A program made the translations under genes and the position numbers. The notes beneath the pieces are model-generated. The model was given only the letters and a program-made list of their open reading frames with translations. It ran no database searches and was not told where the DNA came from. From assembly GCA_964525635.1 (NCBI GenBank), contig CAZGJX010000003.1, positions 32,001 through 96,000 on the forward strand: a stretch of 64,000 bases of DNA, in the 5' to 3' direction. This DNA is from an uncultured archaeon (GTDB lineage Archaea; Asgardarchaeota; Lokiarchaeia; Sigyniarchaeales; SOKP01). The number at the start of each line of letters is the position of its first letter. Within the stretch, counting starts at the first letter, position 1. Positions 4,914 through 59,331 of the stretch are shown piece by piece.

Positions 4914-7103
4914 ATGTGTCATTATCAAATAGATGAAAATATTTCATACGGAAAGTATCTTGAAGCCCTAGAAAAATTAAAATTAATTGAGAAAAAAAGA
5001 ACACTAACTAGTGATGAATATTTATTAAAAATTTATGTAAACATTTTTATATTGCTTGATAACGGAGAATTTCATAGAGGTAAGGAACTTGCTGATAAAA
5101 TGATTAAAGAATCCAGAAAACAATGCAATATTTTAATGGAAATTGATGCATTAATAGGAAAAATTGAGCATAATTATAGTTTATCTATTTATAATGAATC
5201 ATTTGAATTAGTAGAGCAAGGAGAGAATCTTTTAAAAAAAATAAATGATAAAGAAATAAATCAAATAAAAAAACGTCAAGCATATTTATTATTTCTGAAA
5301 GGAAAGCTTTACCGTGATTCACATAATATAAAAAAAGCTTTAGAGCTATTTAAACAGAGTTATGAATTAAGAAAAGAAATTAATGATAGATTTGGAATGA
5401 TTTGGAGTTTATCAGAATTAGGAATATCAAGTACTACAATTGGAGATTTTAAAATAGCTAAGAAATATTTGAAAGAGGGTATAACTTTAACTAAAGAATT
5501 AGATGCAAGAATAGGTTTGATTTGGTGTTTAGTCCATATTGGTTGGGTAAGTTATCATTTAAGAGATTTAAATAGTGCTACATCATATGCAAAGGAATGT
5601 CTTTCAATCTGTCATTATAAAAAAAATAGTATTGCAATTTCACTTTGTTATGATCTTCTGGGTCATTGCTCCCTTGTAAAAGGAGATTTAAAAAATGCGT
5701 TACTCTTATTTAAGGATGGTCTTAATATTAGAAAAGAAAACAAATTTAATAATTTAATTCCATACTCTTATTGCTTAATAGGAGAAGTCTATTGTCAAAA
5801 GGGTGAATTTAAAAAAAGTATAGAATATTTTGATAAAATAATTGAAATTAAAGACTATTATTTAGGTGATATGTTTAAGCCTATGTATTTAAATGCATTA
5901 GGGAAGATCTATGGAGAATTAGGGGAATATAAGATTGCAAAAAAATATCTATTAGAAGCTTTAGATTTTTTAAAAAAAAAAAAGATATATCTCTTTCAAT
6001 TTATAAATTTTAATATATCCACAATAAAAATACTTCATAATTTAATTGTACTCTCAATAAATAACAAAGATTTTGAAAAAGTAAATAATTATTTAGATGA
6101 TTTATATCAAATCAAATTAAAGCATTCGGAGTTAAAACAAGTTGATCAAATATATCGATTAGATAAGGGTATTATTTTAAAGTCAGGAAATCGTTTAATG
6201 AACAAGATTAAAGCAGAAAAAATATTTAATGAAATTATTGAGGAAGAGAGAATTGATAATGAAATTACTATTGAAGTAATGAAAAATCAATGTGAAATCT
6301 ATCTATATGAATTAGAAATAAGTGGAGAAAAATATATACTACAGGAAATGGAGATGCTTTCTGATAAATTATTCATGATAGCCGAATCTGAGGAATTATT
6401 TGATACATTAGCCGAAGCATATTTTCTTAAAGCTAAAATAGCGTTATTAAATTTAGATATAAATAATGCACGCTTATTATTGACAAAAGCACAGAATATT
6501 GCAAATGAATATGAACTAACACGATTAGCAAGTAAAATATCTAATCAACACGATTCCCTTTTAATGAATTTAGATAAATGGGAGGAGAAAATTGAACAAA
6601 ATCTCACATTAAAGGAAAGATTAATAAATTCTAAAAATGACTTCCTGTTCTTTGAAAAAGATAGTTTAAATTCAATTGAAAAAGAAGATAAAAATGAAAT
6701 ACCGGTCTATTTTTTAATTATAAACAATATCAACGCAGAATGTATATATAATAAAGCATTTCAGAATATAAATATGGATGATGGTAGCCTTATAGCAGGA
6801 TATATTTCAGCCATTAATATTTTTGGAAAAGAAGCCTTTAATTCTTCAGGTTCGATTAACCGTATAAGACATGGTGAATATATAACAATTTTAGCTTTAA
6901 AAGAGGAATTTTTATTTGGATATATCTTTAAAGGTTATTCTTATTCTGCTATATCTAAATTGAATAAATTTATCAAAGAATTATCATACCTTACTTCTAA
7001 TTTTGAAAATATTACTTTAGAATTTGAAAGAAATCTAAAACTCCCTGAAGAACTCCATATAACTATGGAAAATTTAGTGGAAAACATTTTCTTGATGAGT
7101 TAA
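4914..7103 (+). CDS. TPR-repeat protein with C-terminal longin-like domain (paralogue 3, subtype B)
   Basis: Collinear paralogue; has the subtype-B segment IINNINAE..YNKAFQNIN. Confidence 0.8.
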   Translation: MCHYQIDENISYGKYLEALEKLKLIEKKRTLTSDEYLLKIYVNIFILLDNGEFHRGKELADKMIKESRKQCNILMEIDALIGKIEHNYSLSIYNESFELVEQGENLLKKINDKEINQIKKRQAYLLFLKGKLYRDSHNIKKALELFKQSYELRKEINDRFGMIWSLSELGISSTTIGDFKIAKKYLKEGITLTKELDARIGLIWCLVHIGWVSYHLRDLNSATSYAKECLSICHYKKNSIAISLCYDLLGHCSLVKGDLKNALLLFKDGLNIRKENKFNNLIPYSYCLIGEVYCQKGEFKKSIEYFDKIIEIKDYYLGDMFKPMYLNALGKIYGELGEYKIAKKYLLEALDFLKKKKIYLFQFINFNISTIKILHNLIVLSINNKDFEKVNNYLDDLYQIKLKHSELKQVDQIYRLDKGIILKSGNRLMNKIKAEKIFNEIIEEERIDNEITIEVMKNQCEIYLYELEISGEKYILQEMEMLSDKLFMIAESEELFDTLAEAYFLKAKIALLNLDINNARLLLTKAQNIANEYELTRLASKISNQHDSLLMNLDKWEEKIEQNLTLKERLINSKNDFLFFEKDSLNSIEKEDKNEIPVYFLIINNINAECIYNKAFQNINMDDGSLIAGYISAINIFGKEAFNSSGSINRIRHGEYITILALKEEFLFGYIFKGYSYSAISKLNKFIKELSYLTSNFENITLEFERNLKLPEELHITMENLVENIFLMS

Positions 7104-7220: not shown

Positions 7221-7274
7221 ATGCATGCATATAAATTTAAACTCGGTTGGCAGTGGCCATGGCGTTTCGAATAA
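7221..7274 (+). CDS. trpL: putative trp operon leader peptide MHAYKFKLGWQWPWRFE (17 aa)
   Basis: Read by hand: ATG 7221, TGG at 7248/7254/7260, TAA 7272-7274; directly upstream of the trp operon. Confidence 0.75.
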   Translation: MHAYKFKLGWQWPWRFE

Positions 7275-7338
7275 CGCTCTTGCATTGGTATAATCATATT
7301 TTAGTATGTGCTTTTTAATAGAATCATGCTATTTTTTT
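7251..7338 (+). promoter_or_regulatory. putative trp attenuator: hairpin over the Trp codons and stop, followed by U-tracts
   Basis: GCGTT-tcgaat-AACGC stem (7262-7277), extendable with CAGTG(7251)/CATTG(7283-7287); T5 at 7312-7316 and T7 at 7332-7338. Confidence 0.5.
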
Positions 7339-7447: not shown

Positions 7448-7690
7448 ATGTTGGAAGAAAAATTAATATCTAAAAAAATGAATGAATTAAATGATTTAGA
7501 TTCAATTATAGATTCAAATGAGTTACATATCTCTCAAGAGAAGATCTATACTCAAGTAATGAAACTTATCAATAAAAAAAAGACAATCATTTTTGGTCCA
7601 GAAAAAAGTAAAACAGCAAAATTTATTGCTGAAAATTGTATGGATGTGTACAATATAATTAGAAAATATTATATGGAGAATTCTGATTAA
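7448..7690 (+). CDS. hypothetical 80-aa protein, first gene of the trp operon
   Basis: ORF stops 1 nt before the trpD ATG; contains no Trp. Confidence 0.55.
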   Translation: MLEEKLISKKMNELNDLDSIIDSNELHISQEKIYTQVMKLINKKKTIIFGPEKSKTAKFIAENCMDVYNIIRKYYMENSD

Positions 7691-7691
7691 G

Positions 7692-8750
7692 ATGTCTGAA
7701 GAGATTAAGATATTAACAGGATTAAACAGTGTAATTAAGAATATAGATCTATCAACCAATGATGCAGAAGAAATAATGCGTGAGATTATGAGCGGAAGAG
7801 TCACTAACGCTCAATTAGGAGCATTTTTAACTGCATTAAACATGAAAGGTGAATCTATTGATGAAATAGTTGGATTTGCAAAAATTATGAGAGAATTTGC
7901 AAATCGTATCGAACCAAATGTTTCAGGTGAATTATTGGATACATGTGGAACAGGAGGAGATAAAATAAAAACATTTAATATTAGCACGATTTCTGCAATA
8001 GTTCTTGCTGGAGCTGGAGCTTATGTTGCAAAACATGGGAATAGAGCAGTTACAAGTAAATGTGGAAGTGCTGATTTATTAGAAGGACTTGGAGTAAATA
8101 TAGCTTTAGAACCAGGAAAAGTAAAGAATTGTATTGAACAAGCAGGAATTGGCTTTATGTTTGCTCCTCTGTTTCATCCTGCTATGAAATATGCAATGCC
8201 TACTAGAAGAGAATTAAAAATCCGAACTGTCTTTAATATTTTAGGTCCTTTAACAAATCCAGCTAATGCAAAATGTCATGTTTTAGGTGTATTTAAAAAA
8301 GAGATGGTTCCAATCATGGCGAAGGTTCTAAAAGGATTAGATGCAAAACATGTCTTTACTGTTCATAATTCATATGGAATTGACGAACTTGCTCCCACAG
8401 GAGTAAATTATATTACAGAATATATGGATGGAAACCTTGAAAGTTATGCAATTACCAATAAAGAATTTAATATTCCTGATTGTTCTATTAATGAATTGTT
8501 AGCCGGAAATCTTGAGGAAAATTTAAAAATAGCAATTGATATTCTCAAAAATCAATCTTCTGGGGCAAAATTTAATACGGTTTTAATGAATGCTGCTTTA
8601 GCATTAAAAAGTATAGATATTGCTCATGATTTTCAAGAAGGTGTGGCAATTGCTAAAGAAACGATTGAATCTGGAAAAGCCTTTGATAAATTAAAAAAAT
8701 TTATTGAAATTTCTGGTGGAGATATCCAAAAATTAATGAATCTTACATAA
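7692..8750 (+). CDS. trpD: anthranilate phosphoribosyltransferase
   Basis: DTCGTGGD, FNIST, KHGNRAVTSKCGSAD, RTVFNILGPLTNP motifs. Confidence 0.97.
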   Translation: MSEEIKILTGLNSVIKNIDLSTNDAEEIMREIMSGRVTNAQLGAFLTALNMKGESIDEIVGFAKIMREFANRIEPNVSGELLDTCGTGGDKIKTFNISTISAIVLAGAGAYVAKHGNRAVTSKCGSADLLEGLGVNIALEPGKVKNCIEQAGIGFMFAPLFHPAMKYAMPTRRELKIRTVFNILGPLTNPANAKCHVLGVFKKEMVPIMAKVLKGLDAKHVFTVHNSYGIDELAPTGVNYITEYMDGNLESYAITNKEFNIPDCSINELLAGNLEENLKIAIDILKNQSSGAKFNTVLMNAALALKSIDIAHDFQEGVAIAKETIESGKAFDKLKKFIEISGGDIQKLMNLT

Positions 8751-8769
8751 ATTAAGAGTAAACTAAATA

Positions 8770-9573
8770 ATGGTTTCAGATAAAATAAGAGAAATAGTAA
8801 ACAAGAGATTAAAAACAATATCTAATGATATTGAATATGAAAAACATATGGAAAGTTCAATTCAAAATAAAAATATTTTAAATCTAAGTGAAACTATTAA
8901 AAATAATAAAGGAATTTCAATCATTTCTGAAATAAAACCAGCATCACCAACATTAGGAGAAATAAGAAGCAATATTAACGTTCCAGATATTGCTAAAATC
9001 ATGAAAGATTCAGGTGTTATTGGATTAAGTATTTTGACAGAACCAAATTATTTCAATGGTTCATATACTAATTTGAAATTAGCTGTTGAAACTACAGAAT
9101 TACCTTGCTTGATGAAAGATTTTGTTATTAATCCTATCCAATTTTCTATAGCTAGCAAACTTGGAGCAACGAATATTTTAATTATTAACTCAATTGAAAA
9201 TCTAAATTTAGAGGAGTATTATAATTTAGCAATGAATTATCATCTTGAACCACTTATCGAAATTCATGATATAGATGAAATTAAAGATATTCAACATTTA
9301 TTCGAAATTGGTTTTAATCCAAAATTAATTGGTGTTAATAATCGCAACCTGAATACCTTATTAATAGATCTTAATACATCTAAGAAAATTATACCAGAAT
9401 TAAAACAAGAATTTGGAAATAAAATTCAAATTGTAAGTGAAAGTGGTATAAATTCTCATAGTGATATTAAAGAATTGCAATCTTATGGTGCTAATGCATT
9501 TTTAATAGGATCTTCAATTATGAAATCAATTGATATTAGTAAAAAGATCCATGAATTAAGAGGTGTAGATTAA
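8770..9573 (+). CDS. trpC: indole-3-glycerol phosphate synthase
   Basis: ISEIKPASPT, SILTEPNYFNGS, KDF, GVNNRNL, SESGI motifs. Confidence 0.96.
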   Translation: MVSDKIREIVNKRLKTISNDIEYEKHMESSIQNKNILNLSETIKNNKGISIISEIKPASPTLGEIRSNINVPDIAKIMKDSGVIGLSILTEPNYFNGSYTNLKLAVETTELPCLMKDFVINPIQFSIASKLGATNILIINSIENLNLEEYYNLAMNYHLEPLIEIHDIDEIKDIQHLFEIGFNPKLIGVNNRNLNTLLIDLNTSKKIIPELKQEFGNKIQIVSESGINSHSDIKELQSYGANAFLIGSSIMKSIDISKKIHELRGVD

Positions 9574-10226
9574 TGGAATATATTAAAATCTGTGGTATCA
9601 AAAATTTTGATGATGCCAAACTATGTATTGAAAATGGAGCAGACGCAATAGGATTTGTATATAATGTCCCTTCTTCTCCAAGAAATCTAGAAATAAATGA
9701 AATTAATTCACTTATTAATCAGATAAATAATAAGATTTCTACAGTCTTAGTAACTAAATCTAATAATTTGGAGGAAATTCAAAGATTAATAAAGGAGTAT
9801 AATATTACATATTTTCAAATACATTCAAATTTAGATATTAATGAGTTTAATCAACTTCCAACTGAAATAAAACAAAAACTTATTATAACTCTTAAAGTAA
9901 ATAATGAAAATAAAGATTCAATCACATCAATCATCAATAAATTCAATGACCAATTTCATGCCTTTTTATTAGATAATAGTGAAGGTCATGGAAATGAATT
10001 AGATATAAATCTAGTAAAAAAAATTATAACCAATTTAAAAGATACGAGAATTATTCTTGCGGGAGGAATAAATATTAAAAATATTGAAAATATTATTAAA
10101 ATTTTAAATCCCTATGGTATTGATCTTAGTAGCTCTTTAGAATCTGAAAAAGGAGTGAAAGACCCTAATAAAATTATAAATTTCTTAGAAAAAATAAATG
10201 GAATAAAAAATAACATTAAAAATTGA
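9573..10226 (+). CDS. trpF: phosphoribosylanthranilate isomerase
   Basis: IKICGI, GADAIGFV, SPR, ILAGGI, GIDLSSSLESEKGVKD. Confidence 0.95.
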   Translation: MEYIKICGIKNFDDAKLCIENGADAIGFVYNVPSSPRNLEINEINSLINQINNKISTVLVTKSNNLEEIQRLIKEYNITYFQIHSNLDINEFNQLPTEIKQKLIITLKVNNENKDSITSIINKFNDQFHAFLLDNSEGHGNELDINLVKKIITNLKDTRIILAGGINIKNIENIIKILNPYGIDLSSSLESEKGVKDPNKIINFLEKINGIKNNIKN

Positions 10227-11447
10227 GTGAAAATGGACTATATTGGAAAATATCCTGATAAATTAGGAAAATTTGGTGATTTTGGGGGTATGTTTGCACC
10301 TGAGATCCTTATGCCTGCACTAAATGAATTGACTGAAGCATATAATAAATATATACATGATGATGAGTTCCAAAAAGAATTTTATGACATTCTTAAAGAT
10401 TATAGTGGAAGACCTACACCATTGTATTATGCATCTAAACTAAGTGAACAGATTGGGTGTAAAGTTTACTTAAAGAGAGAAGATCTCTCCCATGGAGGCG
10501 CTCACAAGATCAACAATGTTATAGGACAATCGCTGCTCGCAAAGAAAATTGGTAAGAAACGCTTAGTAGCTGAAACCGGTGCTGGGCAACATGGATTCGC
10601 AACGGCAATAGCGGGGGCTTATTTTGGAATGCCAACAAAAGTATTTATGGGAGAGGTAGATATAGTAAGACAATCTATGAATGTATATCGAATGCAACTC
10701 CTAGGTGCTGAAGTTATTCCTGTTAAATCAGGTTCTAGAACATTGAAAGATGCTATTAATGAAGGTTTAAGATATTGGATAGCAAATGTTCATGATACAC
10801 ATTATCTCATGGGGAGTGTAGTTGGACCACATCCATATCCTATGTTAGTAAGAGAATTTCAAAGAGTTATTGGTAAGGAAATAAAACAACAAATATTAGA
10901 AAAAGAAGGTAAGCTTCCTAATGCGATTATTGCGTGTATTGGAGGAGGTAGTAATGCTATTGGAGCTTTCTATGACTTTGTAAATGATGATGTTCAATTA
11001 ATTGGTGTAGAGGCGGGTGGAGAGGGAATGGAGAGTGGTAAACATTCAATAGCATTAGGTTTAGGACGTCGAGGTGTTTTACATGGTGCTATGCAACATC
11101 TTTTGCAGGATGAGTTTGGAAACATTCTTGAAACTCATTCTATCAGTGCAGGATTAGATTATCCAGGGGTCGGACCAGAACATTGCTATTTAAAAGAAAT
11201 TAATCGCTTAAGAGTTGGGGAAGCAACTGATCAGGAGACTTTAGAGGCATTTAAGAATTTATCTCGTGTTGAAGGTATCATTCCAGCCTTGGAAAGCAGC
11301 CATGCTCTTGGATATCTATACAAAATTAGAAATGAATTCGATAAATCAGATATAGTTATTATCAATCTTTCTGGATCGGGAAGTAAAGATTTATCAATTG
11401 TGGCAGATCATATAAAATTTAAAATACATCCTAAGAACATATTGTAA
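10227..11447 (+). CDS. trpB: tryptophan synthase beta chain (TrpB1 type)
   Basis: [16 protein letters not shown] (PLP lysine), [32 protein letters not shown]. Confidence 0.98.
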
Positions 11448-11537
11448 TTTTCTTTAGAAAATTAAATTAATTATTTAAAGTATTAATAAATGATGGAAAA
11501 TATGGGAATTAACAAGAATAAAATTGAAGAATGTAAT

Positions 11538-11624
11538 GATGATACAGTTATTGTTAAATTATCTGGTTCAGGATAAAAAGATCTTGATATAATTAAAGAA
11601 TATATGGTGTTTAAAGTAAAATGA
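11538..11624 (+). pseudogene. relic second copy of the trpB 3' end
   Basis: Reads DDTVIVKLSGSG*KDLDIIKEYMVFKVK*, versus [28 protein letters not shown] in trpB; its TGA overlaps the trpA ATG. Confidence 0.75.
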
Positions 11625-12457
11625 GTAATACAAATAGATTATTTAAGTTATTTAATGGTAGAGATGTCAATGACAAATATTTTATGCCCTTTTTTGTAGC
11701 AGGAGATCCGAGTATTGATGAGTTTAAGAATATCATCAAGAAAATTGAGCCATATGCAGATATCATTGAAATTGGGATACCATTTTCCGATCCTATTGCA
11801 GATGGTCCAACAATTCAAGAAGGAAATGTAAGAGCCTTTAAAGCAGGAATTAATACAAAAGTAGCTCTGGATGCAATTAAAGAACTAAGAAAATCAACTG
11901 ATAAACCTTTTGTTATTTTAACTTATTATAATATACTTATTCAAGGAGCTGAAACAATAGAAAAGTCAATTGATAAAACATTTAAACAATTAAAAGAAAG
12001 TGGAATAGATGGAATGGTTATCGCAGATCTACCAATTGAGGAAGCAAATTTAGTTTTAGAAGCATGTGAAAAGTATGATTTAGCATTAATATTTCTTGTT
12101 GCACCTTCTACCACAGAAGAAAGATTAAAAAAGATCTTGCTTAAAGCAAAAGGATTTATTTATCTAATATCAGTAATGGGTGTAACTGGAGCAAGAGAAA
12201 CGGTTGCTCAAATTACAAAGGAGAATATAGCAAGAATAAAGCAAAAAACTGATAAAAACCTTCCCGTTTTTGTAGGATTTGGTATATCAAAACCAGAACA
12301 TGCAAAAGCTATTATTGAAGCAGGAGCAGATGGAGTTATAATTGGTTCTGCGATTGTAGATCTTATTAAAAATAATCTAAATGATTTTCAGGAAATTGAA
12401 GGAAAATTAGTAGAATTTCATGAAAACATAAAAAATTCAATAAAGAGGTCGAATTAA
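11621..12457 (+). CDS. trpA: tryptophan synthase alpha chain
   Basis: AGDP, IEIGIPFSDPIADGPTIQ, GVTGAR, VGFGIS, ADGVIIGSA. Confidence 0.98.
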   Translation: MSNTNRLFKLFNGRDVNDKYFMPFFVAGDPSIDEFKNIIKKIEPYADIIEIGIPFSDPIADGPTIQEGNVRAFKAGINTKVALDAIKELRKSTDKPFVILTYYNILIQGAETIEKSIDKTFKQLKESGIDGMVIADLPIEEANLVLEACEKYDLALIFLVAPSTTEERLKKILLKAKGFIYLISVMGVTGARETVAQITKENIARIKQKTDKNLPVFVGFGISKPEHAKAIIEAGADGVIIGSAIVDLIKNNLNDFQEIEGKLVEFHENIKNSIKRSN

Positions 12458-12458
12458 A

Positions 12459-13955
12459 TTGGATTTTGACATACATATAGAAAAAATTGGAGAATTAGAT
12501 AATATCTTTAATTTTTATAAATATCTCATCGAAAAATATGATTTTAAGAAGCATGTCCTATTAGAATCCTCATCAGGAAACTCAAACGAAACCTTATATA
12601 GTTTTATTGCTCTTGAACCTGATTTTATGTTTGAAATTAATGGGAAGAACTATAAAATTTTCGATATCACTTCAGAAAGAGGTGAAAATATCAAAAATTA
12701 TGTTGAATCTAAAGATCCCGCTAAGGAAATACCACGTAATCCCCTACCATTTAATGATAATGTCGATTATAATATGATTGCTTTAGATACCTTAAGTCAT
12801 CTTACCCCATATTCTAAATTACCTTTTACTGAACTATTTCCAAGAAATATATTTTTTGGAGGAGTAGTAGGGGTGATCTCTTATGATATAGTAGCACCAT
12901 ATGTTGGTTATCAATCTAATAGTGAATTTCCAGATATTCTCATGGGACTTTATACAAAAGTACTTGTATATTCGCACAAATCTAATGCTTTATTTATGAT
13001 AGATAATAGCCTTGATGATTATTCAAGGGACAAGGACATTAGATATCAATTAGAATTGTTTAAAAGAAATAATATTAAAAATAAAAAGAAAGATATTCCA
13101 TTAGATCTCGACGATATAGATGAAAGTATGTTTAGATCGAATACTTCTAAATCAGCTCACGAACAAATGGTGAACAAGACTAAAGAGCATATATATGCTG
13201 GCGATATAATTCAAGCGGTTATCTCTAGAAGACTATATACTGAAAGTAAAGTAAATCCTATTAATTTTTATGAAATACTTAGAGAGCTTAATCCCTCGAA
13301 TTATATGTATAATATCAATTTCAATTATATTAAAATAATTGGTAGTAGCCCCGAAGCTCTTATAACAAAAAATAAAGATGTTCTATCAACTATGCCAATA
13401 GCAGGAACGATAAGAAGAAGTAAGGATCCAGAAGAAGACTTGAATTTAGAGAGAGAATTACTAGGTAATATAAAGGAGAGGGCCGAGCACCTCATGCTAG
13501 TAGATTTGGCAAGGAATGACTTAGCTAAGGTCTCATATCCTGGAACTGTCGAAACATTTGATTTTATGACGATTCAGAAATACCAAAAAGTTCAACATAT
13601 CGTAAGCAAAGTTAGAAGTAAGACACCTCTTGATGGTTTTCAAGCATTAAAAAGTGTTTTTCCTGCAGGGACATTATCAGGAGCACCCAAATTAGAAGCT
13701 ATGAAAATAATCCAAGAACTTGAAACTGAAAATCGCTCATTTTATGGTGGAGCAATTGGCTATTTCAGTTTTAATGGGGATCTAGCAATGGCAATTGCCA
13801 TTAGAACATTATTTGGTCGGGGAAATAAATATTTTGCTCAAGCAGGGGGTGGAATTGTCGCAGACTCCCAACCAGAACAAGAATTCCAAGAAACTTATAA
13901 CAAATTATACAGTGTTTTGAAATCAATTAAGATAGCGGAGGCAAGAGAACAATGA
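12459..13955 (+). CDS. trpE: anthranilate synthase component I
   Basis: LLES, NPSNYM, SSPE, KERAEHLMLVDLARND, FPAGTLSGAPK, AGGGIVADS; TTG start. Confidence 0.95.
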   Translation: MDFDIHIEKIGELDNIFNFYKYLIEKYDFKKHVLLESSSGNSNETLYSFIALEPDFMFEINGKNYKIFDITSERGENIKNYVESKDPAKEIPRNPLPFNDNVDYNMIALDTLSHLTPYSKLPFTELFPRNIFFGGVVGVISYDIVAPYVGYQSNSEFPDILMGLYTKVLVYSHKSNALFMIDNSLDDYSRDKDIRYQLELFKRNNIKNKKKDIPLDLDDIDESMFRSNTSKSAHEQMVNKTKEHIYAGDIIQAVISRRLYTESKVNPINFYEILRELNPSNYMYNINFNYIKIIGSSPEALITKNKDVLSTMPIAGTIRRSKDPEEDLNLERELLGNIKERAEHLMLVDLARNDLAKVSYPGTVETFDFMTIQKYQKVQHIVSKVRSKTPLDGFQALKSVFPAGTLSGAPKLEAMKIIQELETENRSFYGGAIGYFSFNGDLAMAIAIRTLFGRGNKYFAQAGGGIVADSQPEQEFQETYNKLYSVLKSIKIAEAREQ

Positions 13956-14545
13956 ATATTTTATTTATAAATAATTACGATAGCTTTGTTTATAATTTAG
14001 TTAATTATTTCTGTCAGTTGGCTCCAGACGCTAGAATCATGATCGAAGACAATAATATCTCTATAGAAAAAGTTGAAGAATATTCTATTGATAAAATTAT
14101 AATATCACCTGGCCCCGGTCATCCCAAATACGATACAGGAACTGTCATTCCTATTATTAAACACTATCATAAAGAAATTCCGATCTTAGGGATTTGTCTT
14201 GGACATCAAGCAATTGTTGAAGCTTTTGGTGATAAGCCCGATTTGGAATATATTGGACGAGCTAAAGTAGGACCTATGCATGGAAAACAATCAAAGATAT
14301 TTCATGATCAAGAAAAAATCTATAAGGATATACCTAATCCAATCCAAGTTATTCGCTATCATTCTCTTGCAGCTAAAGGGGACATTCTTCCTCAAGACCT
14401 TAAAATCACAGCTACTGCAGATGATGGAACAATTATGGGGGTTCGACATAAACAATTTCCAGTTGAAGGGGTTCAGTTTCATCCCGAATCAATACAAATG
14501 AAGCCCCATGGAATGCAAATTTTAAAAAATTTCTTAGATATATGA
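13952..14545 (+). CDS. trpG: anthranilate synthase component II (glutamine amidotransferase)
   Basis: NYDSFVYNL, ISPGPG, GICLGHQ, RYHSL, QFHPES. Confidence 0.96.
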   Translation: MNILFINNYDSFVYNLVNYFCQLAPDARIMIEDNNISIEKVEEYSIDKIIISPGPGHPKYDTGTVIPIIKHYHKEIPILGICLGHQAIVEAFGDKPDLEYIGRAKVGPMHGKQSKIFHDQEKIYKDIPNPIQVIRYHSLAAKGDILPQDLKITATADDGTIMGVRHKQFPVEGVQFHPESIQMKPHGMQILKNFLDI

Positions 14546-17568: not shown

Positions 17569-19773
17569 ATGAATCATATTAAGAACGATCTAATAGAAAA
17601 TTGTATTTTACATGGTAAATTTCATGAAGCACTTAATAGTCTTAACTCAATTGAAAGAAGAAGAGTTTTATCTGATAATGAGTTGCTAATGAAAAAATTA
17701 ACTAAGATTTATATTTGTATTGATAAAGGAGATTTTAAGAAAGGTAGATCAATTGCTGATGAGATGATTAAGCTTTCACAAGAAAAAAATAATATATTGA
17801 GGGAGATTGATGGCCTTATCGGTAAGGTTGAAAATATGCTTTGTTTAGTTTTATATAATGATGCGCTTCAATTATTAAAAAAAGCAGAATCGATATTAAT
17901 TAAAGCTCAAAATATATCAATAAAAGAATTTAAACGGAAAAAAGCATATATAATCTATCTTAAAGGAAGAATTTGTCAAGATACCCATAAAATCAATGAA
18001 GGAATAAATTATTTTAAGGAAAGTCTTAAAATAAGAAAAGATATAAATGATAGGATAGGTATAATCTGGACTTTATTAAATCTAGGTATATTAACCGTAG
18101 CTATTGGAGAATTTCAAAATGCAGAAAAATATATTACCAAAAGTTTAAATCTTGCTGAAGAATTCAATATTGAGGCTGCAATTATTTGGAGTTTGATTCA
18201 TTTAGGGTGGATTAAATATCACAGAAGAGAACTAGATCTTCTAATGGTTTATGCCCAAAAATGTCTTTTGATTTGTAAATCACAAAATTTTAAGTATTCA
18301 TTAGCTTATTGTTATGATCTTATTGGACATTATCACCTCATTAAAGGAAATTTAAATGACGCTTTACATAATTTTGAAATAAGTTTAAATTTAAGATTAG
18401 AAGAAGGATATAGATATTCATTACCACAATCGTATTATAGTATTGGAGAAGTATATAGTCAGAAAGGTGAACTTAGAGAGAGTTTAAAATATTATCACAA
18501 AATTATAGATATTCCCTTAATTGATGAGAAAGAATTCTTTACACCAGTTTATTTAAGTACAATGGGTAAAATCTATGGTGAACTCGGTGATTTTCCTAAA
18601 GCTAAAAAATATTTATCATCTGCTTTAGACTTATTTAAAAAAAACAAAATGTTAACCATTCACTTCCAAAATTTCACTATGTCAATTGCTAAAACTTATC
18701 ATTTTTTAATTGTTCTTTCAATACGGAATAATGAACTCGAGAATATAAATAATTACTTAGAGGATTTACATCAAATAAGTCAGGAGCACCCAAATCTTAA
18801 ATATATTAGCCAAATATATAAATTAGATAAAGCTATAATATTAAAAATAAGTAATCGTGTTAAAATTCGAATGAAAGCAGCCAATATTTTTAAAAAACTT
18901 TCTGAAGAAAAAATAATTGATCATGAAATTACAATTGAATCTATGACAAATTTATGCGAACTTTTGATATATGAATTAGAATTGACAGGAAATGAGGATA
19001 TACTTATAGAGATAAAGGATATTTCTAATAAATTACTTAAAATAGCAGAAGCGCAGTATCTATATAATTTAATGGTCGAAATATATTTATTTAAAGCTAA
19101 AATATCATTATTAGAGTTAGATCTTAATAAGGTACATGATTTTCTATCAAAAGGTCAAAGAATAGCATTGAATTTTGATTTAAAATTATTATTAAAAAGA
19201 ATTTCCAGTGAATATGATTCATTACTAGTTAATAAAGATAAATGGGAGGAAATGATTAAAAAGCAAATCCCATTACAAAAGCGAGTGAATTATTCAAGAT
19301 ATGAATTTTTATTTTCTAGTATGGTTCGAACTAAAATCAAAAAGTCAATAGAACTTCCAGAATTGCCTTATTATTTTATAACTCTCAGTAATATCGATGG
19401 ATACTGTTTATATGAGAAGAATCTCCAAGAGAAATTAAATATAGAGGGAGATTTTATAGCAGGATTTATTTCAACTATAAATCTATTTGGTAAAGAAGCT
19501 TTCTCTTCCTTAGATTCAATTAACCGAATTAAACATGGAGATTTTTTTATAATTCTACAGTCTAAGGAAAATTTTTTATTTGGTTATGTATTTAAAGGTC
19601 AATCTTATTCTGCAATAACTAAATTAGATCTTTTCATTAAAAAATTAACAGAATTTAATGATATATTCAAAAAATTGTATTATTCTTTACAGAGCCATCT
19701 TGAATTATCAGAAGAAACTAAAATATCAATAGATAATTTAGTTAATGAGATTTTTATACAAGATAATAAATAG
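17569..19773 (+). CDS. TPR-repeat protein with C-terminal longin-like domain (paralogue 4, subtype A)
   Basis: Collinear paralogue; RVNYSRYEFLFSSMVR is closest to paralogue 1. Confidence 0.8.
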   Translation: MNHIKNDLIENCILHGKFHEALNSLNSIERRRVLSDNELLMKKLTKIYICIDKGDFKKGRSIADEMIKLSQEKNNILREIDGLIGKVENMLCLVLYNDALQLLKKAESILIKAQNISIKEFKRKKAYIIYLKGRICQDTHKINEGINYFKESLKIRKDINDRIGIIWTLLNLGILTVAIGEFQNAEKYITKSLNLAEEFNIEAAIIWSLIHLGWIKYHRRELDLLMVYAQKCLLICKSQNFKYSLAYCYDLIGHYHLIKGNLNDALHNFEISLNLRLEEGYRYSLPQSYYSIGEVYSQKGELRESLKYYHKIIDIPLIDEKEFFTPVYLSTMGKIYGELGDFPKAKKYLSSALDLFKKNKMLTIHFQNFTMSIAKTYHFLIVLSIRNNELENINNYLEDLHQISQEHPNLKYISQIYKLDKAIILKISNRVKIRMKAANIFKKLSEEKIIDHEITIESMTNLCELLIYELELTGNEDILIEIKDISNKLLKIAEAQYLYNLMVEIYLFKAKISLLELDLNKVHDFLSKGQRIALNFDLKLLLKRISSEYDSLLVNKDKWEEMIKKQIPLQKRVNYSRYEFLFSSMVRTKIKKSIELPELPYYFITLSNIDGYCLYEKNLQEKLNIEGDFIAGFISTINLFGKEAFSSLDSINRIKHGDFFIILQSKENFLFGYVFKGQSYSAITKLDLFIKKLTEFNDIFKKLYYSLQSHLELSEETKISIDNLVNEIFIQDNK

Positions 19774-19945: not shown

Positions 19946-22141
19946 ATGGATGATAATCAGATAGAAAAGTATATTTCAATTGGAAAATATGAAGATGCAC
20001 TAAATAACCTCAAGTTAATTGAGAAAGAGAGAATTTTATCAACTGATGAAGATTTATTAAAAAAATATGTATTATCTTTTATTTCTCTTGATAAAGGAGA
20101 TTTTGAGAAAGGAATAAGAATTGCTGATAAACTTATAAAGGAAGCCTATGAAGAAAATAATATTTTAGGGGAGATTAATGGTATAATTGCAAAGACCGAA
20201 AATACTAGTACCTTAGGGCTATTTAAAGAATCGCTTAAATTAATAGAGGAGGGCGAATTAATCCTTAAAAATTGTAAAAATATTTTCCCAGTTGTTAAAA
20301 AACAAAAACAAGCTTATCTAATTTATTTAAAAGGAAGAATATATCGAGATACTCATTATATTTTTGATGCAATAAAATTTTTAAAAAAAAGTTATAAATT
20401 AAGAAAAGAAATAAATGATAAAGTTGGAATGATGTGGTCTTTATTAAATTTGGCCTCCATCATTAATGTTAATGGTAATTTTAAAAGTGCAGAAAGATAT
20501 TTTAATGAAAGTCTAACAATAGCAGAAGAATTAAATATTGAGGAGGGAATAACATGGAATTTAATTTATTTTGGTTGGTTAAAGTATCATCAAAGAGATC
20601 TAACTAAAGCAATTTCTTATGCTAAAAGATGTCTCTCTATTTGTGAACCAAAAAATTATAATTATCCAAATACAAGATGTTATGATCTTATCGGACATTG
20701 TTATCTTTTAAAAGGAAAATTAAACACAGCTTTACTTTATTTTGAGAAAAGCCTGAATATAAGAGAAATTGAAGGATATAAACAGATGCTACCAGTATCA
20801 TATTATTCTATTGGATTAGTTTATTGCCAGAAAGGAGAATTTAAACGAAGTTTAAGTTATTATGAAAAAACTTTAGAATTATTAGATCTTGAAGTAAGAG
20901 AACTGGTAATACCTGTGTATTTAAACGCAATTGGTAAGGTTTATGGTGAAATAAATAATTTCCAAGCTGCAAAAGAACATTTACTAGAAGCTTTAAATAT
21001 ATTAGAAAAGAATGAAATACCATTGTTTCAATTTTTAAACTTTAACGTCTCTATTACATCTACATTACATAATTTAATTTTACTCTCCGTGAATAATAAT
21101 GATCTTAAGAATGTTAAAAATTACTTAGAAAAAATACATAAAATAAGTATGGATAATCCGGATATTAAGCAATTTGATCATCTTTATCATTTAGATAAAG
21201 CTATAATTTTAAAATCAAAAAATCGTTTAATGGATAAGATGGAAGCAGTAAATATTCTTGAAAATATAATAAAAGAAGAAATTATAGATCATGAAATAAC
21301 AGTAGAGGCTATGAAAAATTTATGCGAAATTTTATTATATGAATTAGAATTATCGGGAGATAAAGATATTCTACGAGAAATAGAGGCCCTTTCAGAAAGA
21401 TTACTTGAAATTAGTAGATCAGAATATTTATATGATTTATTAGCTGAAACTTATTTCTTTAAAGCAAAAATATCCTTATTAAATTTAGAGACTCAAAAAG
21501 CACGTTTATTATTAACAAAAGCACAGAATATTGCAAATGAGCATGATTTAATAAGATTAGCATCCAAGATATCAAATGAGCACGATTCGCTTTTAAAAAA
21601 TCTTGATGAATGGGAAATAAAAATTAAACAATCTGAATCTTTAAAGGATATATTGCATAATAAAAAAGATGATTTTCTTTTTATAAAAAAAGACTTATCC
21701 GATAATAATAAAGAATCAAAGAATTATGATATTCCTGTCTATTTCATTATTATTAATAATATAAATGCTGAATATTTATATAATAAAGCATTTCAAAATA
21801 TTAATATTGATAATGCGAGCCTTATAGCAGGATATATATCAGCAATTAATATATTTGGGAAAGAAACCTTTTCATCCTCAGGTACGATCTCTCGAATTAA
21901 ACATGGAGAATATCTAACAATTCTTCAATTAAAGAAGGAATTTTTATTTGGATATGTCTATAAAGGATATTCTTATTCCGCTATCTCTAAATTAAATAAC
22001 TTTATTCAATCTTTGAGTAAAGCAACGAATGATCTTGAAAATATTACTATAGATTTTGAAAAATATCTTAAACTTCCAGAAGGTATAAGTATAACAATTA
22101 ATAATTTAGTAAATGAAATTTTCTTGGAAAACAAAAATTGA
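19946..22141 (+). CDS. TPR-repeat protein with C-terminal longin-like domain (paralogue 5, subtype B)
   Basis: Collinear paralogue; IINNINAEYLYNKAFQNIN is closest to paralogue 3. Confidence 0.8.
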   Translation: MDDNQIEKYISIGKYEDALNNLKLIEKERILSTDEDLLKKYVLSFISLDKGDFEKGIRIADKLIKEAYEENNILGEINGIIAKTENTSTLGLFKESLKLIEEGELILKNCKNIFPVVKKQKQAYLIYLKGRIYRDTHYIFDAIKFLKKSYKLRKEINDKVGMMWSLLNLASIINVNGNFKSAERYFNESLTIAEELNIEEGITWNLIYFGWLKYHQRDLTKAISYAKRCLSICEPKNYNYPNTRCYDLIGHCYLLKGKLNTALLYFEKSLNIREIEGYKQMLPVSYYSIGLVYCQKGEFKRSLSYYEKTLELLDLEVRELVIPVYLNAIGKVYGEINNFQAAKEHLLEALNILEKNEIPLFQFLNFNVSITSTLHNLILLSVNNNDLKNVKNYLEKIHKISMDNPDIKQFDHLYHLDKAIILKSKNRLMDKMEAVNILENIIKEEIIDHEITVEAMKNLCEILLYELELSGDKDILREIEALSERLLEISRSEYLYDLLAETYFFKAKISLLNLETQKARLLLTKAQNIANEHDLIRLASKISNEHDSLLKNLDEWEIKIKQSESLKDILHNKKDDFLFIKKDLSDNNKESKNYDIPVYFIIINNINAEYLYNKAFQNINIDNASLIAGYISAINIFGKETFSSSGTISRIKHGEYLTILQLKKEFLFGYVYKGYSYSAISKLNNFIQSLSKATNDLENITIDFEKYLKLPEGISITINNLVNEIFLENKN

Positions 22142-56244: not shown

Positions 56245-57432
56245 ATGATTAAACAATTTAATTTTACTAATATTCCCAAAATAATATTTGGCTCAGGAAA
56301 ACTTCAAGAGCTTTATAAAATAATTCCAGATTTTGGGACGAATATTTTATTTGTTATTGGAAAGAGTTCTCTAAAAAATTCAGGTAAATGGAAAGAAATT
56401 ACACATAACATAGAAGGAAAAGATTTTAGTTTTTCTCATGTTTCAATTTTAGGAGAACCATCTCCTTCAATTATTGATAAAATAACATCAGAACTGAGAA
56501 ATAAATCAATTGATTTAATTATTGGAATAGGAGGAGGAAGTGTAATAGATGCTGGAAAAGCTATATCCGCTATGTTAACCAAAGAAGAGTCTATAACAAA
56601 TTATTTAGAAGGTGTTGGTTATAAACAACATAATGGATCAAAATTACCATATATCGCTATCCCTACTACATCAGGTACTGGAAGTGAGGCAACTAAAAAT
56701 GCTGTAATAAGTCAAGTTGGCCCACATGGATTTAAAAAATCTCTTAGGCATGATAATTTTGTTCCGAATATCACAATTATCGATCCTGAATTAATGATCA
56801 CCTGTCCATCCTCAAAAACAGCAGCTTGTGGAATGGATGCTTTCACCCAATTACTTGAAACATATGTTTCTTCAATTGCAAATCCAATAACGGATGCTTT
56901 AGCTTTTAGTGGAATAAAAGTGATGAAAGATAATCTTATACCTGCTTGTACTTCTGGATCGAATGATATAAATGTAAGAAGTGGGATGGCATATGGAGCT
57001 TTAATGTCAGGAATAACATTAGCAAATGCAGGTTTGGGAATAGTGCATGGATTGGCATCACCAATAGGAGGTTTTTTCGATATTCCTCATGGTATAGTAT
57101 GTGGAACTCTTTTATCTAATGCAACAAGAATTAACATAGAAAGATTAAAAGAAATAGGTCAAAAAGGAAGGAAATCCTTAAAGAAATATGCTGAAATTGG
57201 AGCATTAATTTTAAATCAATATAATGTGGAAGAAAAGAAGATAAATCATTATTTAGATACTTTATTGAAGACATTAGATAAATGGACAAAAGATCTAAAT
57301 ATAGAAAGATTAGGATCTTATGGAATTACTGAAAATGATATAGATAAAATAATAAAAAATACAAGTCTGAAAAACAATCCAGTAGATTTAACAGCTAGAG
57401 ATATAGAAACAATAGTAATTAATAGATTATAG
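56245..57432 (+). CDS. iron-containing alcohol dehydrogenase
   Basis: GGGSVIDAGK, PTTSGTGSE, GMDAFTQ, VHGL, PHG. Confidence 0.93.
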   Translation: MIKQFNFTNIPKIIFGSGKLQELYKIIPDFGTNILFVIGKSSLKNSGKWKEITHNIEGKDFSFSHVSILGEPSPSIIDKITSELRNKSIDLIIGIGGGSVIDAGKAISAMLTKEESITNYLEGVGYKQHNGSKLPYIAIPTTSGTGSEATKNAVISQVGPHGFKKSLRHDNFVPNITIIDPELMITCPSSKTAACGMDAFTQLLETYVSSIANPITDALAFSGIKVMKDNLIPACTSGSNDINVRSGMAYGALMSGITLANAGLGIVHGLASPIGGFFDIPHGIVCGTLLSNATRINIERLKEIGQKGRKSLKKYAEIGALILNQYNVEEKKINHYLDTLLKTLDKWTKDLNIERLGSYGITENDIDKIIKNTSLKNNPVDLTARDIETIVINRL

Positions 57433-57517
57433 ACCAATTTATAAAAAATTTTAGTAATATTTTAATTATACCAATATATACTTAATATAGCTAATAAATA
57501 TCTAAGGAATAAAAATA

Positions 57518-57619
57518 ATGAAGATGCTTCAAAATATAAAAGATAATTATAATATGAGCAATTTGGGGCAAGTTTTATCCTTAGGTTTACTTTTAAATTT
57601 ACTTTTATTATTATTATAA
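57518..57619 (+). CDS. leuL: putative leu leader peptide MKMLQNIKDNYNMSNLGQVLSLGLLLNLLLLLL (33 aa; alternative starts 57524, 57554)
   Basis: Read by hand; 13 Leu codons, six consecutive before TAA; ends 98 nt upstream of leuA. Confidence 0.7.
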   Translation: MKMLQNIKDNYNMSNLGQVLSLGLLLNLLLLLL

Positions 57620-57623
57620 AGCG

Positions 57624-57678
57624 CCTTCTAATGTTTTATAAGATTTGATAATTCTACTTCTTATAAACATCTAGAAGG
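57624..57678 (+). promoter_or_regulatory. long hairpin immediately after the leu leader stop
   Basis: CCTTCTAATGTTTTATAAGA (57624-57643) pairs with TCTTATAAACATCTAGAAGG (57659-57678), one bulge per arm. Confidence 0.75.
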
Positions 57679-57717
57679 TTATTGAATTAATACACAGTTT
57701 AAAGTAGGTAAAAGAAA

Positions 57718-59331
57718 ATGGTGGAAATGGATGAAATAAGTGTTTCAGGAATGATGGAAAAGATTAGGAATACTCTTACTCTTCCGGAGAAGGCATATTT
57801 TTTTGACACAACTCTTCGTGATGGAGAACAAACACCAGGTATAAGTTTTACTCATGAAGAGAAGCTATCAATTGCCGAAGCACTTAGTAATTTAGGAATA
57901 GATATTATTGAAGCAGGATTTCCCATAACTTCTGAAGGAGATTTTACCGCTTGTAGAGATATCGCCAAGCTTGGATTGAATTCTGAGGTAATTGGATTAG
58001 CTAGAATGAAAAGAATTGATATAGACAGAGTAATAGAGGCAGACATGGACAGTATTCATGTTTTTATTTCAACTTCAGACTTACATCTAAGAGAACAAAT
58101 AAAAATGACGAGAGATCAGGTAATAGACTGTATTATTGAAGAAACTACATATGCAAAAGAGCATTATAATACAGTATTATTTTCTGCTATGGATGCGACT
58201 AGAACAGATTTAGATTATCTAATAAAAGCAAACTTAACTGCAGTTGAATGTGGTGCAACACGGGTTAATATCCCAGATACCGTTGGAACGATTACACCCA
58301 CTGCTTTTGGACATATTATTAAAAAAAATTATGAAGTTTTACCTAAAAATATAAGGATTGCTGTTCATTGTCATAATGATTTTGGTCTAGCAGTTGCAAA
58401 TACTATTGCTGGTTTTGAGAATGGTGCTTCTGAAGCTCAAACGGCTATCATGGGTCTTGGAGAAAGGGCTGGAAATGCCTCTTTTGAAGAGACTGCAATG
58501 TCCTTTTACGCTCTATATGGATTGCCTATGAACATTAATACAAGACTAATATTTCCAACAGCTAAATTGGTAGAGAGTTATTGTGGTGGAAAAATAAAGA
58601 TTGGACGCTTGCAACCTCTAATAGGACAAAATGCTTTCGCACATGAGGCTGGAATTCATGTAGCTGGGCAGATTAAACATGCAAGAACTTTTGAACCAAT
58701 AACTCCTGAATTGATAGGAATTAAAAGAACCGATAATCTAGAAGAAATAGTCAAACAATCTATAAAACTTGGAAAACATACAGGAAGTCATGGATTAAGA
58801 GCAAAATTATCTGATCTAGGATTAAATCCAACAGAAGAACAGTTTAAGAAAATCTTTGACCATGTTAAAAGTTTTGGGGATAAAGGACACGAAGTCTCAG
58901 AGGAGGATCTCTTTGCTATAGTTAAAGACGTGATGGGAGAGCTTCCAGAAGTAGAACAATATGTGATACTTGAAGAACTTACAGTCTTGACTGGTTCAGT
59001 AACTCCTACCTCAACAGTTAGATTAAGAATTAGGGACAATGGTTCCTCGATTCGTAAAACTGCTTCTTCGGTAGGAGTTGGTTCTGTTGATGCTTCTATT
59101 AAAGCAATTGTAAAATGTTTTGGACCAATGAGTAAAGTAAAACTACTTGAATATAATATTGATGCAGTTACAGGAGGGACTGAAGCATTGGGTCATGTAA
59201 CAATTGAATTAATGGATCTGGATACAAATCAAATTGTAAAAACAAGTGCCACTCATGAAGATATTGTAATGAGTTCTGTGCTTGCACTTCTTAAAGGTCT
59301 AAATCAAATAATGAAGTATAAGAGTGAATAA
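57718..59331 (+). CDS. leuA: 2-isopropylmalate synthase (LeuA/CimA family)
   Basis: DTTLRDGEQ, HCHNDFGLA, GLGERAGN, HEAGIH, C-terminal regulatory domain; the Leu-rich leader favours LeuA over CimA. Confidence 0.85.
   Translation: MVEMDEISVSGMMEKIRNTLTLPEKAYFFDTTLRDGEQTPGISFTHEEKLSIAEALSNLGIDIIEAGFPITSEGDFTACRDIAKLGLNSEVIGLARMKRIDIDRVIEADMDSIHVFISTSDLHLREQIKMTRDQVIDCIIEETTYAKEHYNTVLFSAMDATRTDLDYLIKANLTAVECGATRVNIPDTVGTITPTAFGHIIKKNYEVLPKNIRIAVHCHNDFGLAVANTIAGFENGASEAQTAIMGLGERAGNASFEETAMSFYALYGLPMNINTRLIFPTAKLVESYCGGKIKIGRLQPLIGQNAFAHEAGIHVAGQIKHARTFEPITPELIGIKRTDNLEEIVKQSIKLGKHTGSHGLRAKLSDLGLNPTEEQFKKIFDHVKSFGDKGHEVSEEDLFAIVKDVMGELPEVEQYVILEELTVLTGSVTPTSTVRLRIRDNGSSIRKTASSVGVGSVDASIKAIVKCFGPMSKVKLLEYNIDAVTGGTEALGHVTIELMDLDTNQIVKTSATHEDIVMSSVLALLKGLNQIMKYKSE

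Follow-up and report, generated by a model that had tools for sequence, protein, structure and literature searches.

A leucine-rich leader reading frame ahead of leuA in Asgard archaea as a probable ribosome-read gauge of leucine supply

Introduction

Leader-peptide attenuation is a textbook bacterial mechanism. In the enterobacterial leaders leuL (RF00512), trpL, hisL, pheL and ilvL, a short open reading frame (ORF) with its own ribosome-binding site (RBS) carries a run of codons for the end product and is flanked by RNA helices, and once the first round is over RNA pairing shuts off the RBS of the leader. In the Rho-dependent attenuation at E. coli tnaC, the stall results from free tryptophan and takes place at the stop codon, and the factor involved is Rho. 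The element that we describe here, a Leu-rich leader ahead of leuA in an Asgard archaeon, is built like the enterobacterial leaders in each of these respects, including the predicted closing of its own RBS. Unlike leuL, it belongs to another domain of life and has no sequence or structure match to RF00512; moreover, its Leu run abuts the stop codon and is followed at once by a single long hairpin without a U tract, and we found no terminator/antiterminator pair. We propose that, as at tnaC, a ribosome held at the leader end decides whether a termination factor gains access to the nascent RNA beside the stop codon. In contrast to tnaC, the stall in the Asgard element would occur at hungry Leu codons, and the factor, if there is any, would be the unrelated FttA/aCPSF1, which has not been tested.

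Two further systems invite comparison. In the LEU element of actinobacterial leuA, pairing between the Leu run and the Shine-Dalgarno (SD) sequence forms the basal stem of a pseudoknot (Seliverstov et al. 2005; PMC1262725), and a structured RNA that binds a protein or a ligand was proposed after mutations of the Leu codons had little effect (PMC1262725). The Asgard element shares with it an upstream ORF (uORF) with a Leu run, a compact structure, a leuA SD and the absence of an obvious terminator (PMC1262725), but differs in that pairing between the Leu run and the SD is unsupported across loci, the insert is a plain hairpin, and an extra helix (P1) closes the RBS of the leader. Leaderless short ORFs with polycysteine runs in mycobacteria unmask a sequestered RBS (Canestrari et al., bioRxiv 10.1101/834739). 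Common to these ORFs and the Asgard leaders are amino-acid runs before cognate biosynthesis genes, a ribosome-directed regulon and a design that needs no terminator (10.1101/834739), whereas the Asgard leuA RBS appears accessible in every state modelled, and the leader possesses a 5′ UTR, which pairs with its coding region. A search of the full-text literature found no case of leader-peptide attenuation in archaea.

Results

Layout of the leuA locus

The stretch of DNA analysed here (the window) is 64,000 nt long and corresponds to contig C3:32001-96000 of the genome, and the leuA element occupies the following positions in it.

57500–57514, plus strand: 5′ strand of helix P1, in the leader 5′ UTR, holding the SD-like AAGGA (57504–57508); based on the minimum free energy (MFE) fold, covariation and a duplex test.
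57518–57619, plus strand: leader ORF (leuL-like), with an ATG start, 33 codons and TAA.
57573–57586, plus strand: 3′ strand of helix P1, within the leader ORF, codons V19–G23, the beginning of the Leu block; based on the MFE fold, covariation and a duplex test.
57575–57616, plus strand: Leu-codon block, in which 12 of 14 codons are Leu and the final six are consecutive; the stop codon (57617–57619) follows directly.
57623–57679, plus strand: hairpin P2, imperfect, about 56–57 nt, 22 bp, −20 kcal/mol, beginning 3 nt past the leader stop.
57680–57717, plus strand: A-rich spacer including the leuA SD AGGU (57706–57709); based on the genome-wide SD position and the alignment.
57718–59331, plus strand: leuA, 2-isopropylmalate synthase with a C-terminal allosteric domain, the proposed regulated gene; based on profile matches.

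Translation of the leader gives MKMLQNIKDNYNMSNLGQVLSLGLLLNLLLLLL, followed by TAA. Leu accounts for 13 of its 33 residues and for 12 of the 14 final codons, the peptide ends in LLLLLL directly before the stop, and the Leu codons are a mixture of TTA, CTT and TTG. The gap between the leader stop and the leuA ATG at 57718 is 98 nt. The leuA product (537 aa) scored 567.9 bits against a cut-off of 517 for an NCBIfam subfamily of 2-isopropylmalate synthase, and contains an HMGL-like catalytic domain and a LeuA_dimer allosteric domain. A first-pass annotation of the window had described a Leu-rich ORF of this composition, codon mixture and distance ahead of leuA; that description is correct, and the downstream gene encodes a bona fide 2-isopropylmalate synthase.

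AGGT/GAGG motifs peak 12–13 nt 5′ of the start codons of long ORFs genome-wide, and AGG in the leuA spacer is almost invariant across the alignment. The gene 5′ of the leader (56245–57432) encodes an iron-type alcohol dehydrogenase and the gene 3′ of leuA a peptidase C13-like protein, so that leuA stands alone. The genome, an Asgard MAG (Promethearchaeota, Loki-type), also encodes the archaeal/eukaryotic ribosomal protein L31e. Neither tRNAs nor Rfam families at gathering scores were detected within the window, and a comparison of 57300–57850 with Rfam, including RF00512, T-box and riboswitches, returned only chance-level matches at E ≤ 10.

Non-randomness and conservation of the leader

The genome (4.45 Mb in 245 contigs, 26.8% GC) contains, on both strands together, 41 strings of five Leu codons followed by a stop and 8 strings of six Leu codons followed by a stop; among all these, only the leuA leader and one other lie at most 200 nt upstream of a long ORF. 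We also scanned 3120 ATG-started uORFs in upstream intergenic DNA, scoring the best 10-codon window of each against the uORFs’ own amino-acid composition. The leuA leader ranked first of the 3120 for enrichment of a single amino acid (9 of 10 codons Leu; binomial p = 5e-8), and the second-ranked uORF was an Ala/Val-rich one before the branched-chain aminotransferase gene ilvE. The Leu leader before leuA is not a product of chance.

For comparison between loci, we assembled a set with LeuA 66–90% identical, consisting of 22 loci from species genomes, 2 from sampled genomes of the phylum and 17 from metagenome contigs (41 in total, of which 40 are distinct and one is a duplicate). The LeuA relatives at 72–90% identity all came from MAGs of Promethearchaeota (Loki-type Asgard). 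A Leu-tailed uORF preceded leuA in all 41 loci, and the distance from the leader stop to the leuA ATG ranged from 87 to 125 nt, with a median of 94 and an interquartile range of 91–95. The region from the leader 5′ UTR to the leuA ATG had a median nucleotide identity of 51% and formed 30 clusters at 80% identity. Most leaders were 31–37 codons long and had a conserved MKxLQ-like start (39–41 loci), and an SD-like AGGA/GGGA was conserved 10–13 nt upstream of the leader start, matching the position of the genome-wide SD peak. The leader frame was open in all loci; the other two frames averaged 4.4 and 2.2 stops and were open in 0/39 and 1/39 loci, respectively.

Leu was found at positions −1 to −5 from the stop in 80–98% of loci (n = 41), and the Leu fraction of the last 16 codons was 0.62, compared with 0.098 in the long ORFs of the genome. 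All six Leu codons are used across the loci, and synonymous codons have been exchanged at −4 to −6. Other residues interspersed among the Leu positions are free to vary (D, E, R, K and N all occur), which speaks for a constraint on codons and not on a folded or membrane peptide. Since the gene 5′ of the element differs in identity and strand from locus to locus, the element travels with leuA. That frame, start, SD, length and Leu tail are kept at about 51% nucleotide identity, with synonymous turnover of the Leu codons, upholds the interpretation as a cognate leader proposed in the first-pass annotation. That annotation would have been refuted by Leu runs being equally common before unrelated genes or by a lack of conservation before leuA orthologues; the first is ruled out by the rarity of strings of six Leu codons with a stop and the top rank among the uORFs, and the second by the presence of the leader in 41/41 loci.

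None of 18 loci from distant Asgard families (LeuA 42–49% identical) had such a Leu leader, and a covariance model (R1) run on 150 genomes of the phylum gave matches in only 6 genomes, all belonging to the family of the window, in a search of limited sensitivity (28 scored candidates for each genome). Within the window’s family, a leuA of this type is present in only 6 of 25 sampled genomes; thus leucine synthesis looks patchy in the group.

Two conserved helices around the Leu codons

RNAalifold on MAFFT alignments yielded no consensus structure, and covariance models (R1 and R2) together with alignment-free tests were used instead. Because the R1 and R2 alignments were fitted to their own models, we added an alignment-free test, in which the duplex energy of two strands from the same locus was compared with that of strands from different loci.

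P1 pairs the SD segment of the leader with the first Leu codons (S/P-L-G/E-L), enclosing the leader start and about 17 codons. On the R2 alignment (35 loci), 73.7% of the P1 cells were paired, compared with 65.5% in shuffled and 42–54% in slid controls, and compensatory changes were found at 12 of the 16 pairs. The alignment-free test gave −12.6 kcal/mol for matched and −8.2 kcal/mol for mismatched duplexes (p = 0.0005).

P2 started between −3 and +7 nt relative to the stop (median 2), was 45–67 nt long and had a median ΔG of −19 kcal/mol over the 41 loci, with a mean z-score of −4.0 against dinucleotide shuffles. In the R1 alignment, 73 cells had changed on both sides, compared with 41 ± 6 in shuffles, and 70.5% of cells were paired, compared with 47–59% with a slid partner. 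Matched arms were again more stable than mismatched ones without recourse to an alignment (−20.3 vs −11.9 kcal/mol, p = 0.0005). P2 was stabler on the plus (sense) strand in 38/41 loci and contained 91 G-U pairs, supporting an RNA structure and not a DNA operator. Its 5′ half tends to fold alone (mean z of −1.8).

The lower stem of P2 has a peculiar composition in the 35 aligned loci. Its 5′ side always consists of pyrimidines (CCUUC-like, resembling an anti-SD) and its 3′ side of purines (GAAGG-like, resembling an SD), with transitions as the only changes.

Search for the output signal

The longest U run within 25 nt after P2 was at most 3 in most of the 41 loci, these 25 nt being A-rich or mixed, and a U run of at least 4 in the loop or the upper 3′ arm of P2 was present in only 10/41 loci. 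A T7 inside leuA, considered as a terminator signal, merely reflects the codon choice for YFF; ten loci have TTC instead, and the run is not conserved. With no U tract after P2 and the T7 explained by codon choice, there is no recognisable archaeal intrinsic terminator. The first-pass annotation had likened the locus to LeuL attenuators. In this comparison the cognate leader holds, but the mechanism does not carry over, since there is neither an Rfam match to the leuL family nor a terminator made of a hairpin plus a U tract.

Sequestration of the leuA RBS was predicted for the window itself but was not general across loci. In the MFE fold of the window, the Leu run and the leuA SD region are paired with each other on either side of P2, and masking of the Leu block lowers the cost of opening the leuA RBS from 6.0 to 1.65 kcal/mol. 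The mean opening costs over 33 loci, however, were 2.98 kcal/mol in free RNA, 2.52 with a ribosome on the Leu block and 2.62 with a ribosome at the stop (p = 0.10). Complementarity of the leader to the leuA RBS was not above that to shuffled RBS sequence (z = +0.3), pairing of the leader with the P2 arms showed no excess over shuffles, and neither the leader block nor the P2 arms matched the RBS in a locus-specific way (p = 0.94–0.97). The leader block paired slightly better with the purine-rich upper 5′ arm of P2 from its own locus (matched −7.5 vs mismatched −6.7, p = 0.0065), with p = 0.08 in a refined test. Among the pairings predicted across loci, no statistically solid alternative that excludes P2 was found. 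With neither a U-tract terminator nor specific RBS sequestration found, the link between P2 and leuA output is unresolved.

Two further candidates near P2 were rejected. A second mini-ORF right after P2, behind the SD-like 3′ arm, had a start-like codon in only about half of the loci as judged by eye, which is near chance. A frameshift at the UUA run into leuA is not feasible, as both shifted frames stop inside P2.

Other amino-acid leaders in the genome

The first-pass annotation had extrapolated from Trp and Leu leaders to a wider leader-peptide system, and within this genome the extrapolation gains support from leaders with Ile (before the citramalate synthase CimA), Ala/Val (before ilvE) and Trp (before the trp operon), whereas no leader was found upstream of its leuB- and leuC-like genes.

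CimA is a LeuA paralogue encoded on contig C20 (TIGR00977, 664.8 bits against a cut-off of 450). Upstream of the gene lies an Ile-run leader, MKKTIIPIVIIIIDGII followed by a stop (locus L201:1597-1936, minus strand); a hairpin of about 57 nt begins directly behind the stop, and part of the 5′ UTR is complementary to the Ile codons. By its predicted structure, the CimA leader shares the design of the Leu leader, namely 5′ UTR pairing and a post-stop hairpin. Two paralogous enzymes, each with a run of its own end product, are hard to explain except by charged-tRNA sensing, and the nature of the runs gives the expected sign of the response: starvation turns the gene on.

On the minus strand of contig C77 (locus L196), about 146 nt separate ilvE from the Ala/Val-rich uORF, MTLNNTNMENIVINYLAVALAAANVVVL plus a stop, behind which come a short GUCA..UGAC hairpin and U5CUUCU. 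The Trp leader before the trp operon has 17 codons, three of them Trp (MHAYKFKLGWQWPWRFE), and a T7 run lies at 7332–7338, about 60 nt behind the leader, both within window 7222–7338.

The enrichment scan also returned uORFs that we do not interpret as leaders. A Leu-rich uORF before a 538-aa gene on contig C73, which encodes an unnamed protein, was read as chance. The Trp-rich uORF MWGWRSFWTWCSA (contig C49, locus L195:1-400) is probably due to chance despite its high enrichment rank; it lies 87 nt before an IS1634-family transposase gene (550 aa).

Discussion

A ribosome-read leucine gauge

We interpret the leuA element as a leucine gauge that acts in cis, is read by the ribosome and corresponds in archaea to the leader peptides of bacteria, with a probability of about 0.8; this figure is for the sensor and not for the output, and there are no expression, ribosome-profiling or genetic data behind it. 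Asgard archaea at these loci thus very probably gauge their leucine supply with the ribosome. The transcript is predicted to begin upstream of 57500, and the leader, on the strength of its conserved open frame, to be translated, again without support from expression or ribosome profiling.

Transcription and translation are coupled in archaea, and a ribosome protects about 12–13 nt ahead of its A site. With such a footprint, only a ribosome that has come to the stop codon, or to one of the final two Leu codons, could open the base of P2. Under a shortage of Leu-tRNA, the first ribosome would dwell on the Leu codons, so that P1 is kept open and P2 is free to fold once transcribed; slow passage over up to 13 Leu codons would make the pioneer ribosome lag, P2 would fold behind the polymerase, and leuA would be expressed. 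When Leu-tRNA is plentiful, the ribosome would reach the stop in time and its footprint would hold the base of P2 open, and P1 would close behind this ribosome, shutting the leader RBS. Through this closure, each transcript would be read about once. Folded P2 would therefore correspond to leuA ON, and P2 blocked by a ribosome at the stop to OFF. One point against the model is that P2 would stay folded both after an early stall in the Leu block and when no ribosome loads at all, so that ON becomes the default state.

For the output, we prefer a co-transcriptional step, in which the unfolded nascent RNA behind a just-uncoupled RNA polymerase would be exposed to early termination or to cleavage, for example by FttA/aCPSF1. 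This factor terminates polymerases with accessible nascent RNA, whereas archaeal intrinsic termination requires oligo-U. The preference rests on three points: P1 makes the leader a one-shot device, the leuA RBS looks open in all modelled states (about 3 kcal/mol), and the sister Trp and ilvE leaders carry U tracts. It nonetheless remains tentative and short of an even chance, because no terminator signal was found. It also counts against it that no hairpin has been shown to affect FttA or the archaeal RNA polymerase at a site of this kind. A translational output step is somewhat harder still to credit, though it remains possible, and what is left falls to mRNA stability or other routes.

Applied to the Leu, Ile, Ala/Val and Trp leaders together, the model would amount to an Asgard ribosome-directed regulon, in which a hairpin placed 2–3 nt behind the leader stop senses that the ribosome has arrived there, and this signal is converted into premature transcript loss through the eukaryote-like FttA/aCPSF1 acting on uncoupled RNA polymerase, without a bacterial-type terminator. 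We regard this extension as doubtful, and offer it as a conjecture.

Alternative interpretations

The same sensor could instead have a translational output. In RNA free of ribosomes, the U-rich Leu codons would pair with the leuA ribosome-binding region, P2 having placed them beside the A-rich spacer and the SD, and a ribosome stalled on the Leu codons would free the RBS. The MFE fold of the window shows just such a pairing, with a drop of the opening cost from 6.0 to 1.65 kcal/mol on masking; the order of Leu run, structured insert and SD is that of the LEU element (PMC1262725), RBS unmasking by stalled ribosomes is documented for the poly-Cys uORFs (10.1101/834739), and the distance from stop to ATG is kept within a tight range (interquartile range 91–95 nt). 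The pairing is not general, however, as the opening costs over 33 loci hardly depend on the position of the ribosome (2.98, 2.52 and 2.62; p = 0.10), and the complementarity between leader and RBS is at the level of shuffled sequence (z = +0.3) with no locus-specific match (p = 0.94–0.97). In addition, P1 shuts the leader’s own RBS, which would be odd for a sensor that is continuously translated. We consider this mode of action unlikely, while keeping it in view.

Much less probable is that P1 and P2 together make up a structured RNA with a protein or ligand as its binding partner, the open frame being tolerated or incidental and not acting as a sensor. P1 and P2 are indeed the best-supported features of the element, the doubt over the actinobacterial LEU element provides a precedent (PMC1262725), and the fixed pyrimidine and purine sides of the lower P2 stem hint at a sequence constraint. 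Such an RNA would not explain, however, why the frame is open in all loci when the other frames have 2–4 stops, why Leu persists through synonymous changes where the sequence between P1 and P2 is unpaired, or why the stop codon keeps its place beside P2; nor would a ligand or protein site predict the Ile run of the CimA leader in the same design, and no Rfam match was found, T-box and riboswitches included. Hardly credible are the remaining two possibilities, namely that the ORF product is a small hydrophobic protein with an independent function or that a transcription factor uses the inverted repeat as a DNA operator. The C-terminal half of the leader is hydrophobic, but conservation is limited to the Leu positions, with D, E, R, K and N between them; the repeat in the window comes close to a perfect palindrome, but its arms covary, with the 91 G-U pairs and the greater stability of the sense strand in 38/41 loci that are the signature of RNA.

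Implications and further observations

If the leucine gauge is real, archaea too control biosynthetic genes through reading by the ribosome, in several product-matched versions, and this would imply tight coupling of the pioneer ribosome to a eukaryotic-type RNA polymerase. If reading of the regulon through FttA also proved true, it would be the first example of attenuation in Archaea, and one that rests on transcription-translation coupling in the prokaryotes most closely related to eukaryotes. The leader, P1 and P2 provide a defined cis element for asking how archaeal termination and mRNA fate are linked to translation. They also suggest an annotation rule, by which, among near-identical enzyme families, a Leu-run leader marks LeuA and an Ile-run leader marks CimA.

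The surroundings of the trp operon deserve mention. An 80-aa ORF (7448–7690) precedes trpD, and the trp genes follow in the order D-C-F-B-A-E-G (7692–14545). The window also encodes five paralogous proteins of about 730 aa (58–2256, 2443–4638, 4914–7103, 17569–19773 and 19946–22141), which form two tandem groups flanking the trp operon; the one that was scanned (4914–7103) contains TPR repeats and a MalT-like TPR region.

In another Asgard family, a Leu-rich ORF 255 nt before leuA, a candidate from the 18 distant loci, proved to be the off-frame shadow of a conserved V4R-domain gene, and was discarded. At five loci of another Asgard family (L090, L093, L096, L097 and L098), a conserved 101-aa V4R-domain gene (PF02830) precedes leuA and there is no Leu leader; this arrangement may be a protein-based alternative form of control. 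The same five loci carry a small conserved ORF (M.KFLSA.LNHFT.FHHN...) about 25–100 nt before leuA.
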